Origin: an uncultured Holophagales bacterium
GTDB taxonomy: Bacteria > Acidobacteriota > Thermoanaerobaculia > Multivoradales > UBA5704
DNA length: 64,000 bases
NCBI GenBank assembly: GCA_963842525.1
Contig: CAWJGT010000019.1
Coordinates: 256,001-320,000 of the forward strand
Reading direction: 5' to 3'
Below are positions 1-44,411 of the stretch, one piece after another (position 1 is the stretch's first letter; the number at the start of each line of letters is the position of its first letter). The notes beneath the pieces are model-generated. The model was not told the origin of the DNA, made no database searches, and saw only the letters and a program-made list of their open reading frames with translations. Position numbers and translations under genes: made by a program.

Positions 1-310
1 AGGATGTCCCGCCGGAGCGCCAGCACTGGGTGCATTTCGAGGAGCTGGTGCAGGCGCCCGAGCGGGTGCTGCGCGGCCTGTGCGCCTTCCTGGGGCTCGA
101 CTACGACCCGGCGATGGCGTCGCCCTACCAGGAGGGCGGGTCGTCGCGGATGACCGACGGCCCGCACGCGGCCTCGCGCATGCTGGGAGACGTAAAGTTC
201 CACCAGCACCGGGGCGTGGACTCCGCGGTGGCCGAGCGCTGGCGTGTGGAGCTGTCGGAGGAGTCCCTGGGCAATGTCACGCGCGAGACCGCGGCCCGGC
301 TCGGCTATGC
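1..310 (+). other. C-terminal part of an embedded sulfotransferase domain (first copy, truncated by window edge)
   Basis: Near-identical to 13710-14020 (HFEELV..PERVLRGLCAFLGLDYDPAM..RMLGDVKF), the C-half of the complete ST domain. Confidence 0.9.
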
Positions 311-42400: not shown

Positions 42401-44411
42401 GGTGCCGGAGAACCCTCACCCCCGACCCCTCTCCCATCCGCACTCCCTTCCACCGGGAGAGGGAAGCCCTCACCCAGAGGCTTCCATGGCAGTGCCAGTT
42501 CCCCCCTCTCCCGGGTGGGAGGGAGTGCGGATGGGAGAGGGGGGCCAGGGGGGTGAGGGCCCACTCCCCTGGTACCTCATCCCCGCCGAGATCCACACCC
42601 TCGACGAGCTCCCCCTGGACGCCCACGGCGCCGTCGACCGCGCGGCCTTGCCTGCTGGCATCCCTGCGACTGTGGCGCCGCCGGTCCCTGATCTGACCGC
42701 CGATCCCCTGGTGCAGGATCTTTCCCGCCTCTGGTGCGAGATCCTGGAGATCGATCACGCGGGCGTCGACGACAACTTTTTCGAGCTGGGCGGGACCTCC
42801 TTCACCGCGGTCCGTGTGCTCGCCCGCATCCAGGAACGGGTGCCCGATGCCGGCGACCTCTCCTCGTTCCTCGTCGAGCCGACCGTCCGGCACCTGGCCG
42901 GGCTCCTACGCTCCCGCCGCGGAGAGCAGCCCGTACCCGCGCTGGCCGGCGCGCCGCCGCAACCGGTCTCGCTCTGGCAGCGCCTCACCGGCTGGCTGCG
43001 GCGCAATCCCCCACCCAGGGAGATAACCAAGGAGAACGACATGGCAGCACCCGACGCACAGCGCAGATGGCGGACCTTCCTGATCCTCTGGTTCGGCCAG
43101 ATGATCTCCAACTTCGGCACCGCCCTCGGCAGCTTCGCCCTGGGCGTGTGGGTGTTCCAGCAGAGCGGCAAGGCCACGAATTTCGCCATGGTCGGATTCG
43201 TCGGCATGGGCACCGGCCTGCTGATCACTCCAATCGCCGGCGTCATCGCGGACCGCTTCGACCGCAAGAAGGTGATGCTCTACTCGGATGCCTGCGCCGC
43301 GCTCGGCACGCTGACCATGGCCTGGCTCTTCTACACGGACCAGATGCAGATCTGGATGGTCTATCCCATCGTCATCTGGATGGGCGGCTGGGGCACCTTC
43401 CAGGGGCCGGCCCTGGCCGCCACCATCAGCATGCTCGTGCCGCGCGAGCAACTGGCCCGCGCGAGCGGCATGGGACAGATGGTGGGATCGGTCACCGGCA
43501 TCGTCGCGCCCCTGCTGGCCGCGGCCCTCATCGCGACCATCGGCTACCACGGCGTCATCATGCTCGACTTCGCGACCTTCCTGTGCGCCGCGGCCACCCT
43601 GTTCCTGATCCGCCTGCCGCGTATCGCGGCCATGGATCCGGGCGCGCACCGGCGCTCGCTCCTGCGCGACTCCGCGTTCGGCTGGAAATACATCCGCGAA
43701 CGCAACGGCCTGTTTTCGCTGCTGGTCCTCTTTGCGCTCACCAACTTCAGCATCGGCATGGTCTCGGTCCTGCTCGGGCCGATGATCCTGAGCTTCGGCT
43801 CGCCGGGCGACCTCGGCACCGTCAACGCCGCCGCCGCGGCCGGAGCCCTGCTCGGCGCCCTGGCCCTGACCATCTGGGGCGGCCCCAAGGTCCGGGTCTG
43901 GGGAATCTTCGCCGCGCTGGTGGTGCAGGGGCTCATCCTGCAGCTCGGCGGCATCGAGCCAAGTATCCCGCTGATCGCCGTGGCAGCCTTCATCTTCATG
44001 TCCACCGGCCCGATCGTGGCCGCCTCCAGCCAGGCCATCTGGCAGAGCAAGGTCGCCCATGAGGTCCAGGGCCGCGTCTTCGCGATCCGGCAACTGGTCG
44101 CCATGAGCACCATCCCCTTCGCCTATCTGGTCGCCGGTCCGCTGGTCGACAAGGTCTTCGGCCCCCTGCTCCTGCCAGGCGGTCCGCTGGCCGACAGCGT
44201 CGGCCGGATCGTCGGCGTCGGGCCGGGCCGCGGCGCCGGCCTGATGATCATGGTCCTCGGCCTCTGCATGATCGTCGCCGTCATCATCTCCTTCCTCAAC
44301 CCCCGCCTGCGCAAGGTCGAGCAGGAGCTGCCGGACGTCCAGCTACCCGGCGCCGCCGGCCCGGGCCAGGCACCCCCCGCCGCCCAGCCGGAAGCAGCCG
44401 CTGCCGGCTGA
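39402..44411 (+). CDS. Degenerate Cy-A-T module continuing in frame into an MFS transporter
   Basis: GTG 39402 overlaps the previous TGA. PFRLTDVQEMYWSGR and DCLLVDGLS (Cy type). A core motifs eroded. T DNFFELGGTS. The frame is open into a hydrophobic MFS region from ATG 43041. Confidence 0.8.
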   Translation: MTPANDAARRIAALSPEQREQLLRELAKAKREAPPDQPPTPVAAPVTATELPQLVPRPEERYQPFRLTDVQEMYWSGRSRLFDLWAPGGNVYIEYELPGDEWFVDQLEQAMRRLCDRHDILRFVMRPDGRGQLLQRLPPFRFELANLRDLEPAKVEERIAAARERFRYHEGPAGQWPLFGFLIHFLDGGRIRIHVWLDCLLVDGLSRDNLWRDLLQILDDPDKELPPLDITYRDYAVTWEEIRQSEAYRRARDYWQRRVPQLPPPLELPLVESLGPHTATRWADQFAPVLEPEAWQRVKDRAARLGVTPSSVLISAFVETIRAWSRRPKFFFSLEGTYWPQVHPQLREMVGNFNTIYILAADDLTGTFAERTRRLQDQLSEVIEHRVFTGFQVLREIRRHLGGGTRALSLVMFNSLIEFRHGSYQDKPLPTGAGAAPAPAVVPPAAVPGVGDGPAPPPDAGPMVQFEETAYMPQLLMLPAVFEGGAGHLVVKFQTVEHLFPPRLIADLRDAFVGVVRKLADSESAWKAPFFAVAPAAHLERRAAPRAPIAAPAQAPATLWSLFAAQAASDPGRPAVAAPDRTLTYGELTERAETLARRLLALGAGPNQLVAAVLDRGWQQAVAVLGILRSGAACLPLEPHAPESLLVDLLAKGVRLAVGTRRAGPDGLLWLDLEGEEAADDRSLPEAGTRDLACAVLTRLPAGTTAWALLEHRAVAPVVADLAQRLGLGTGDRLLSLAPPGSDLALCDLLAPLAAGAAVVLPAAADNDPASWARLAAESGATVWSGPPALIERMLSRFSGPIAGPIAGPIAGPPRLVLLERDTVPVTLPGRLRDLAPDTRVLALAGFPETACAAALHEVEDVPDAAVRIPAGRPIARQVLHVLDHALEPRPDWVAGDLYIGGPCLARGYLRDEAAARSRFLVHPRTGERLFRTGLQARFLAGGELEILGREQEMTADILGYLADLRQTEAALERQPGVRAAVVRAEEDPAARRPRLIAWVVPENPHPRPLSHPHSLPPGEGSPHPEASMAVPVPPSPGWEGVRMGEGGQGGEGPLPWYLIPAEIHTLDELPLDAHGAVDRAALPAGIPATVAPPVPDLTADPLVQDLSRLWCEILEIDHAGVDDNFFELGGTSFTAVRVLARIQERVPDAGDLSSFLVEPTVRHLAGLLRSRRGEQPVPALAGAPPQPVSLWQRLTGWLRRNPPPREITKENDMAAPDAQRRWRTFLILWFGQMISNFGTALGSFALGVWVFQQSGKATNFAMVGFVGMGTGLLITPIAGVIADRFDRKKVMLYSDACAALGTLTMAWLFYTDQMQIWMVYPIVIWMGGWGTFQGPALAATISMLVPREQLARASGMGQMVGSVTGIVAPLLAAALIATIGYHGVIMLDFATFLCAAATLFLIRLPRIAAMDPGAHRRSLLRDSAFGWKYIRERNGLFSLLVLFALTNFSIGMVSVLLGPMILSFGSPGDLGTVNAAAAAGALLGALALTIWGGPKVRVWGIFAALVVQGLILQLGGIEPSIPLIAVAAFIFMSTGPIVAASSQAIWQSKVAHEVQGRVFAIRQLVAMSTIPFAYLVAGPLVDKVFGPLLLPGGPLADSVGRIVGVGPGRGAGLMIMVLGLCMIVAVIISFLNPRLRKVEQELPDVQLPGAAGPGQAPPAAQPEAAAAG
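42413..42559. repeat. REP/RPE-like palindromic element inserted in frame in the dead A domain
   Basis: Arm CCCTCACCCCCGACCCCTCTCCCATCCGCACTCCCT..GGGAGAGGG with its reverse complement at 42504-42559. About 147 bp. Same family as 56607-56820 and 59549-59613. Confidence 0.85.
43041..44411 (+). CDS. MFS transporter (DHA3/H+ antiporter-like), possibly translated separately
   Basis: RBS AAGGAG just upstream of ATG 43041. FLILWFGQMISNFG, motif A-like GVIADRFDRKKV, about 12 hydrophobic segments, QGRVFAIR. Confidence 0.9.
   Translation: MAAPDAQRRWRTFLILWFGQMISNFGTALGSFALGVWVFQQSGKATNFAMVGFVGMGTGLLITPIAGVIADRFDRKKVMLYSDACAALGTLTMAWLFYTDQMQIWMVYPIVIWMGGWGTFQGPALAATISMLVPREQLARASGMGQMVGSVTGIVAPLLAAALIATIGYHGVIMLDFATFLCAAATLFLIRLPRIAAMDPGAHRRSLLRDSAFGWKYIRERNGLFSLLVLFALTNFSIGMVSVLLGPMILSFGSPGDLGTVNAAAAAGALLGALALTIWGGPKVRVWGIFAALVVQGLILQLGGIEPSIPLIAVAAFIFMSTGPIVAASSQAIWQSKVAHEVQGRVFAIRQLVAMSTIPFAYLVAGPLVDKVFGPLLLPGGPLADSVGRIVGVGPGRGAGLMIMVLGLCMIVAVIISFLNPRLRKVEQELPDVQLPGAAGPGQAPPAAQPEAAAAG

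Follow-up and report, generated by a model that had tools for sequence, protein, structure and literature searches.

The 64,000-nucleotide stretch analysed here (the window; positions 256,001 to 320,000 of contig CAWJGT010000019.1 in assembly GCA_963842525.1 of an uncultured Holophagales bacterium, a genome of 9.95 Mb in 34 contigs) carries the 3' 44 kb (1-44411) of a hybrid assembly line of nonribosomal peptide synthetase (NRPS) and polyketide synthase (PKS) modules. Long open reading frames (ORFs) on the forward strand, to which all features below belong unless stated otherwise, covered window positions 3-44411, and the GC content at third codon positions (GC3) stayed at 0.83-0.97 along this whole part. 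Megasynthase ORFs were already present on the same strand from C19:216081 (the prefix C19 marks coordinates of this contig and other prefixes those of other contigs; coordinates without prefix refer to the window). The whole line runs from C19:216222 to C19:300411 (84,190 bp; 28,063 residues) and comprises eight co-oriented, translationally coupled genes, starting 39,779 bases upstream of the window. As judged from the sequence, we consider it rather likely that the window holds the downstream half of an intact and probably functional line working by the mechanism proposed below.

Genes g1 (C19:216222-226043), g2 (C19:226040-232657) and g3 (C19:232654-242513) lie upstream of the window, and g4 (C19:242506-273300; 10,266 aa, two frameshifts being written as X) enters it with its 3' 17.3 kb (1-17300). 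According to Pfam, hidden Markov models (HMMs) of our own and the specificity codes, this part of g4 encodes the end of a first sulfotransferase domain (ST1), two condensation-adenylation-carrier (C-A-T) modules with Phe and Tyr codes, a ketosynthase-acyltransferase-acyl carrier protein (KS-AT-ACP) module, a C-A-T module with a Thr code followed by a second sulfotransferase domain (ST2), and a C-A-T module with an Ala code. It is followed by g5 (C19:273300-279695; 17300-23695), with KS-AT-ACP and a C-A-T module of code DALDLGSVTK, and by g6 (C19:279692-287664; 23692-31664), with two C-A-T modules of that same code and an epimerisation (E) domain. Gene g7 (C19:287681-295405; 31681-39405) encodes a C-A-T module (DVWHMSLVDK), a C domain of the CmodAA type, an A domain (DVWHFSLVDK) with an embedded methyltransferase, and a T domain, and g8 (C19:295402-300411; 39402-44411) encodes Cy-like, A-like and T domains and a transporter of the major facilitator superfamily (MFS). 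The g4 stop codon TAA occupies 17298-17300, and the overlapping gene junctions TAATG (17298-17302) and GTGA (23692-23695 and 39402-39405) are exactly those listed in an initial annotation of the window.

The domain order was obtained with HMMs made from the window's own domains, which were run on the three forward frames and then on the stitched genes, with C-type, A and T domains numbered serially along the line (C1-C22 and A1-A21). Altogether the line contained 21 A, 22 C-type and 24 carrier domains, three KS, three AT, two sulfotransferase (ST) domains and one methyltransferase. Pfam families found in the window ORFs were Condensation, AMP-binding, PP-binding, ketoacyl-synt, Acyl_transf_1, Sulfotransfer_3, methyltransferase and MFS. 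The hybrid NRPS-PKS line with integrated sulfotransferases described by the initial annotation was thus recovered, and both Pfam and our HMMs gave its counts for the window: nine intact NRPS modules, two PKS modules, at least two ST domains, one E domain, one N-methyltransferase and no thioesterase (TE). That account of the domains lacked the probable dehydrating C domain of g7 and the nature of g8, both of which are described below. It had also placed the cluster start and the genes for phosphopantetheinyl transferase (PPTase), MbtH and supply of the sulfonate donor 3'-phosphoadenosine 5'-phosphosulfate (PAPS) outside the window. This is correct for the window; extension upstream reached the start of the line on the same contig, at C19:216222, and the same genome encodes a PPTase, an MbtH and an adenosine 5'-phosphosulfate (APS) kinase.

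Modules and predicted residues

The A domains of the nine complete C-A-T modules in the window lie at 1779, 4965, 11251, 15472, 21800, 25210, 28435, 33103 and 36319, and that of a tenth, degenerate module at 41088. Ten-residue specificity codes were taken from positions that the FDxS, GGE, YGPTE and GK motifs fix in a MAFFT alignment; this mapping reproduced what we take as the standard codes of Thr, Phe, Tyr, Gly, Ala and Ser. Within the window, A12 (DAWTVAAVCK), A13 (DASTVAAVCK), A14 (DFWNIGMVHK) and A15 (DLFNNALTYK) presumably select Phe, Tyr, Thr and Ala, and A19 (DVWHMSLVDK) and A20 (DVWHFSLVDK) presumably both select Ser; A16-A18 share the code DALDLGSVTK, and A21 in g8 has DLCSLELCAA. 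Upstream of the window, A7 (DAWFLGCVVK) is presumably Leu-like, A10 (DILQLGVVWK) is taken to select Gly, and A11 has the same presumed Thr code as A14. The type DP(R/W)Y(T/V/F)G(L/C)V(N/I)K was found in A1, A2, A4 and A6, CVQHIAQVIK in A3 (C19:222665-224149), A5 (C19:230789-232276) and A8 (C19:240681-242138), and DPRHLVLRAK in A9. The residue string of the initial annotation, Phe-Tyr-[C2]-Thr-Ala-[C2]-X-X-X-Ser-NMeSer, fits the extracted codes under these presumed assignments.

Catalytic motifs were intact in every module of the line but the last. The HHxxxDG motif was present in 20 of the 22 C-type domains (C1-C18, C20 and C21), the exceptions being the E domain and the Cy-derived domain of g8; the GGxS serine was present in 24 of 24 carriers, and 17 of 21 A domains had both Asp235 and Lys517 (positions taken from the motif anchors). 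C1-C18 were mutually 44-85% identical. The E domain, number 19 among the C-type domains (30268-31562), carries the motif HHLVGDGVSW, and C20, which follows it in g7, is DCL-like with the motif HHILLDGWS, presumably as expected for a C domain with a D-configured donor. A methyltransferase is embedded in A20 (37804-38178).

C21 (34936-36258) stands in g7 after the A19 module with its Ser code and before the N-methylating module, and was merely 23-31% identical to the other C domains of the line. Its best relatives in the PDB were McyA (8jbr, E-value 4.9e-124) and AmbE (7r9x, 2.3e-65). Since C21 matches these proteins and follows a Ser code, it is most likely a dehydrating CmodAA domain, and the residue that the initial annotation had written as Ser* would most likely become dehydroalanine.

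The three PKS modules of the line are minimal KS-AT-ACP modules. The module in g4 (6747-9765) consists of a KS (6747-7877), an AT (8319-9192) and an ACP (9583-9765), and that in g5 has its KS at 17321. All three KS domains had the Cys/His/His residues in the motifs TACS, (E)xHGT and K(T/S)NxGH, and all three AT domains had GYSLG and HAFH, the latter of which we take to indicate malonyl specificity. No Pfam family for a ketoreductase (KR), dehydratase (DH) or enoylreductase (ER) was found in the PKS modules, in which AT and ACP are spaced by merely 124-133 aa, so three gamma-amino-beta-keto units are expected unless reduction occurs in trans.

Several other features of the modules were observed. 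The first eight modules (g1-g3, C19:216222-242513) formed repeated units of the pattern (X-X-Z)(X-Z)(X-X-Z), g1-g4 shared near-identical N-terminal docking peptides, and C1, C4 and C6 were 65-81% identical. The pocket of A3, A5 and A8 is Pro-like, a related code (DVQFVAQVVK) occurring five times in the genome, and codes beginning with Cys were found in 4 of the 205 complete A domains of the genome. The T domain of the Phe module (3294-3479) carries GGNSISGA, yet no ST follows it; this sequence was otherwise found in the two carriers preceding the STs and in metagenomic T-ST proteins. Together with the likeness of C12, C13 and C15 (mutually 78-80% identical), it suggests that a module was duplicated and that an ST was lost or gained in the process.

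In-line sulfotransferase domains

ST1 (C19:255460-256110, corresponding to window -540..110, with its last 110 nt inside the window) matched positions 1-217 of the ST HMM with 448.5 bits, and ST2 (13168-13818) matched Pfam Sulfotransfer_3 with an E-value of 7.4e-28. ST2 sits between T14 (12817-13002) and C15 (14086-15414), and both STs lie between the T domain of a module with the Thr code DFWNIGMVHK and the next C domain. When ST2 with its linkers was compared with the PDB, the ST domains of CurM (4gbm, 9.2e-72) and of an olefin synthase (OLS; 4gox, 2.1e-63) matched by far the best, and other sulfotransferases matched with E-values of 6.6e-07 or weaker. The PAPS loop PRSG(T/S)T and the Glu of the PPE motif aligned between ST2 and the CurM and OLS domains.

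Homologs of the ST region were collected by a longer-protein search, covering one length class of a 5.8-billion-protein collection, in which 8000 candidates were scored. Among these candidates, 895 relatives were found at E-values of at most 1e-20; the best was at most 75% identical, and homologs with a named source came mostly from Thermoanaerobaculia. All of the best 120 homologs were embedded in NRPS proteins. A T domain preceded the ST in 113 of them, the remaining seven beginning inside or at the ST, and the ST was followed by a C domain in 49, by a TE-sized tail of at least 300 aa in 58 and by a tail of 90-300 aa in 11, two proteins being cut off. The code of the upstream A domain was readable in 68 of the 120; by our own grouping, it was Thr-like in 29, Ser-like in eight, Tyr-like in five, Leu-like in five, of the type DG(L/F)(F/Y)xGExxK in 13 and of other types in eight. 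As judged from these homologs, the in-line ST is common in NRPSs across the lineage and serves hydroxy amino acids in most cases; it is not peculiar to this cluster.

C-A-T-ST-TE termination modules formed a large metagenomic set (among homologs P0007-P0120), with mostly Thr-type upstream A codes. A CurM-like TE after the ST was considered for one terminal homolog, P0036, and rejected, as ordinary NRPS TEs matched and the CurM TE was absent from the 48 PDB matches.

Terminal protein, flanks and host genome

The last gene of the line encodes a Cy-derived domain (Cy*; 39561-40979), a degenerate A domain (A0, identical with A21; 41088-42629), a T domain in which the Ser is present (42717-42902) and a DHA3/EntS-like MFS transporter (43071-44348). 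The C-type domain has DCLLVDG in place of HHxxxDG. A dead C domain that has lost both His residues was ruled out by the DxxxxD motif (DCLLVD), by the Cy1 motif FRLTDVQEMYWSGR, both of which are kept, and by the best PDB matches of the domain, which were all Cy domains: EpoB (1.5e-59), BmdB (1.8e-49), HMWP2 and PchE. In Cy domains, mutation of a putative Asp-Thr dyad and of a helper Gln severely affects cyclodehydration (PMC9547227). All six ordinary Cy domains of the genome had the dyad Asp and the Gln, within QTPQVxLDHQ, and none of the 42 MFS-linked copies did, of which three belong to this genome and 39 are metagenomic. In g8, Leu stands in place of the dyad Asp and Asn in place of the dyad Thr (VVFTS). 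Because the dyad Asp is missing from all 42 copies, no heterocycle is expected.

The A0 domain of g8 has neither Lys517 nor a P-loop. Among 40 proteins of this type, the P-loop was absent from all and Lys517 was present only in P0159, and the carrier Ser was conserved in all 40. Some relatives (about 1050-1190 aa) have no A domain at all. The MFS_1 match in g8 reached 79.4 bits (cut-off 33.4) over positions 1-340 of 347. TIGR00900 scored 210.5 bits (cut-off 319.6) and the Mef and EntS models fell far below their cut-offs, so the transporter is assigned to the superfamily and to no named equivalog. In the 5.8-billion-protein collection the best relative of g8 was at most 55% identical, and contigs of other genomes gave distant matches only (at most 42% over the MFS part).

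Three lines of the genome end in an MFS domain, namely the present one, C3:1502875-1506234 and C34:355110-359342, and in each of them the final domains are A(Ser)-T-CmodAA-A-T-Cy*-A0-T-MFS. The TE HMM found no TE in any of the three; its 13 genome-wide matches end other lines and none lies on contig C19. No hydrolase was found in the flanking ORFs of the present line, and the Pfam families listed for the 39 closest proteins of Cy*-A0-T-MFS type did not include a TE. Because the dyad and the A domain function have been lost, the carrier Ser is kept, the transporter is fused, and TEs are absent from all three lines, we propose that Cy*-A0-T-MFS would act as a terminator that replaces the TE and couples release to export.

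Genes for an NAD-glutamate dehydrogenase and for a DUF5916/CBM9 protein are found upstream of the line. On the other side, g8 is followed by 5 kb of low GC content and then by unrelated genes. The flanking ORFs contained no gene for a TE, PPTase or MbtH. The low-GC stretch (44412-49500; GC 0.63-0.65 vs 0.70-0.75 in the cluster) has two 350-aa ORFs on the minus strand without Pfam match, and the minus-strand ORF at 47531-48583 showed a weak likeness to REP-associated tyrosine transposases (E-value 2.2e-11, 43.8 bits; cut-off 80). Further downstream, a 611-aa ORF (60306-62141) consists of an N-terminal extension of ~330 aa without family match and a FabF-like ketosynthase half (TIGR03150, 135.6 bits; cut-off 493.75).

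The genome (completeness 96.4%, contamination 3.4%) gave HMM matches to 425 A, 402 C, 342 T and 48 KS domains, split pieces included, and to seven strong ST and 13 TE domains. It thus holds on the order of 300 NRPS modules, which make up roughly a tenth of its length. The host is one of the very NRPS-rich Acidobacteriota, and the cluster is one of many orphan lines there. Its RpoB, compared over the C-terminal half, was closest to metagenome-assembled genomes labelled Thermoanaerobaculia (79%), Acidobacteriota (77%) and Solibacteraceae (74%); a myxobacterial origin, considered on account of GC content and genome size, was dropped on this comparison. An APS kinase gene was found at C24:69174-69632. 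The only MbtH-like gene of the genome (C3:40815-40964) and its only PPTase match, of the ACPS family (C3:42246-42563), adjoin each other (C3:40815-42563), and this pair probably serves all of its NRPS lines.

Proposed biosynthesis, alternatives and known systems

In the biosynthesis that we propose, the eight upstream modules of repeated units would start the chain and the ninth module would follow, after which a C2 unit, Gly and Thr would be added. The in-line CurM-type ST would then O-sulfonate the carrier-bound Thr with PAPS. Phe, Tyr, a C2 unit, a second Thr (again sulfonated), Ala and another C2 unit would come next, followed by three residues of one kind (DALDLGSVTK), the last of which would be epimerised. 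The Ser incorporated thereafter would be turned into dehydroalanine by the C domain following its module, which is of CmodAA type, and the final residue would be N-methyl-Ser. The C2 units would keep their beta-keto groups unless reduced in trans. Finally, g8 would take the finished chain to the membrane, where release would be coupled to export by the MFS domain in place of a TE. The PPTase, MbtH and APS kinase would be supplied from elsewhere in the genome.

Several observations weigh against this reading. For 12 of the 21 codes there is no residue assignment, and the assignments of the others, as well as several motif names, are presumed rather than computed. In A3, A5 and A8, Cys occupies the position of the amine-binding Asp235. 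No loading module or starter-type C domain was recognisable in the line, and C1 was 81% identical to the internal, elongating C4. Both STs of the line have PPELELL where CurM and OLS have PPELHLL, and 30 homologs likewise read PPELE; because Glu replaces a His that we take to act in the CurM/OLS active site, the chemistry of these STs may differ from that of CurM. Release of the chain by a Cy* domain that lacks the dyad and is followed by an acceptor that cannot be loaded is purely our inference, and a hydrolase acting in trans from elsewhere in the genome may be the releaser.

The initial annotation had called for repair of the indels, and five frameshifts in 84 kb would fit a decaying pseudogene array from which nothing is made. 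Two lie in the upstream part, at C19:234118 and C19:235370. The other three lie in the window: at ~8694 (8693-8695; one nucleotide, in an AT domain, ...CLAGMM / KLEDALALV...), at 17004 (between A15 and T15, where a run of G is one base short, ...RQIAAVW / EELLRVEKVG...) and at ~30927 (one nucleotide, within the E domain of g6). All five are single-base changes after which the protein motifs resume in the new frame and no stop follows, and GC3 stays high throughout, which argues against decay. Three of them lie at G runs (G6, GGG and GG). The essential rpoB gene (C9:670320-674532) is frame-split near its start in the same assembly, and in the whole genome a single domain continues across frames in 107 pairs of neighbouring partial A or C matches, vs 485 intact matches. 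This amounts to about one split per 7-8 kb of A/C coding sequence, a rate exceeding that in the cluster. We therefore read the frameshifts as indel errors of the assembly, in which any gene call needs frame-aware reading; real decay appears very improbable. The public sequencing runs listed (seven from two studies, each with 0.05-0.10 of the sampled words) included no RNA run. Four runs compared with window 8000-27999 gave short, low-depth metagenome pieces (those listed at most 441 nt), many from related NRPS genes, and none of the 32 pieces listed spans 8694 or 17004, nor is an indel recorded at either. It is even less credible that the line belongs to an already characterised compound that has gone unrecognised. 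The paper search covered open-access texts only, which leaves some room for this, but no named NCBIfam synthetase model reached its cut-off on the line, and 40 related genomes contained no ortholog (the best match had 43% identity in C-A and 56% in the MFS part). The nearest database proteins of the ST region (at most 75%) and of g8 (at most 55%) are unnamed fragments from metagenome-assembled genomes, and no description of an NRPS T-ST-C unit or of a Cy/C-A-T-MFS fusion was found in the open-access literature. Within these searches, the statement of the initial annotation that no characterised product is recognised is supported, and the cluster is most probably a real orphan.

What the STs and g8 do within an intact line is less settled. 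"Probably sulfated", as the product had been described, is one of two live readings, because the nearest characterised relatives of the STs by far are those of CurM and OLS, where the sulfate is a leaving group. O-sulfonated Thr could likewise lose its sulfate by beta-elimination, giving dehydrobutyrine and a sulfate-free product; the preponderance of beta-hydroxy amino acid modules before STs (Thr- or Ser-like codes in 37 of 68) also favours such activation over decoration. However, dehydration would already be covered by the CmodAA domain of the same line, elimination is impossible after the Tyr-like (5/68) and Leu-like (5/68) codes that STs also follow, the His of PPELHLL is Glu here, and the TE after the ST in P0036, the one terminal homolog tested, is of the ordinary NRPS type. 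The integrated ST of OciA, moreover, yields a sulfate-bearing product (PMC2533009). We thus regard elimination as possible but the minority case, and think it somewhat more likely that Thr keeps its sulfate. Lower still we rate the possibility that g8 is a working last elongation module, whose carrier would be loaded in trans with Ser or Thr by an upstream A domain, much like Cy modules of other assembly lines that have no A domain of their own, whose Cy-type domain would add this residue, and whose MFS domain would only export a product released by an unlinked hydrolase. Such trans-loading reportedly has a precedent in yersiniabactin synthetase. The carrier Ser conserved in 40 of 40 proteins, the conserved Cy1 and DxxxxD motifs, the family members without an A domain, and the Ser- or Thr-type last active A domain in two of the three MFS-ended lines would all suit it. 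Against it, the last A domain of the third line is Tyr-type, neither a TE nor a hydrolase turned up within the three lines or next to them, and loss of the dyad Asp in 42 of 42 copies speaks against a heterocycle. Returning to release coupled to export, the joint and more general claim is a doubtful one: that, here and in many soil Acidobacteriota, a T-ST-C unit sulfonates carrier-bound Thr (to sulfo-Thr or dehydrobutyrine) and Cy*-A0-T-MFS terminates the line without a TE.

To our knowledge, few untapped sources of nonribosomal peptides are as rich as the uncultured Acidobacteriota, and almost none of their products is known. As a target, the line offers a largely predictable chain of ~20 residues that would include three ketide units, one dehydroalanine and one N-methyl group and would be sulfonated at two sites. 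Two of its domain arrangements, the in-line T-ST unit (T-ST-C/TE, in hundreds of metagenomic proteins) and Cy*-A0-T-MFS (in dozens), are widespread in metagenomes, and we found neither in an open-access paper. If the proposed mechanism is true, on-line sulfation or dehydration and export-coupled release without a TE would become tools for NRPS engineering, and annotation would change, since such clusters are now likely read as having no termination domain.

Among known systems, the ACP-ST-TE segments of CurM and OLS (4gbm and 4gox) share the ST family with the present line, about half of the aligned residues being identical, and likewise have the ST covalently in line directly after a carrier, with the PAPS loop and the PPE Glu. 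They differ in that their ST precedes a decarboxylating TE, whereas the present ST comes after the T domain of an NRPS module presumed to carry Thr and before a C domain. In the curacin and olefin synthase pathways the sulfate is eliminated. The CmodAA domains of McyA and AmbE (8jbr and 7r9x) resemble C21 as its best matches and in the position after a Ser-code module; this likeness is known here from overall similarity, and a dehydrating activity of C21 would follow from it. In the AmbE study, CmodAA is said to act on the donor-bound residue. The Cy domains of EpoB, BmdB, HMWP2 and PchE share the Cy1 and DxxxxD motifs with the Cy* domain of g8, which unlike them lacks the dyad and the helper Gln and has a dead partner A domain.

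Two published pathways offer further parallels to the in-line STs. The cyanopeptolin synthetase OciA of Planktothrix has an ST domain built into the NRPS, and its product retains the sulfate (PMC2533009); this ST belongs to an initiation unit with a glyceric-acid loading domain and not to an internal T-C junction downstream of Thr. SulN of the sulfazecin pathway also sulfonates a carrier-bound peptide with PAPS (PMC11298585), but it is a separate protein that N-sulfonates and serves a beta-lactam made by a TE. As for g8, actinobacterial proteins that NCBI annotates as "non-ribosomal peptide synthetase/MFS transporter" (C-A-T-TE-MFS), for which the open-access search likewise yielded no paper, are alike in fusing a terminal NRPS module to a DHA3/EntS-like MFS domain; unlike g8, they have a TE family listed, and their identity to it is only 30-40% over the T-MFS part.

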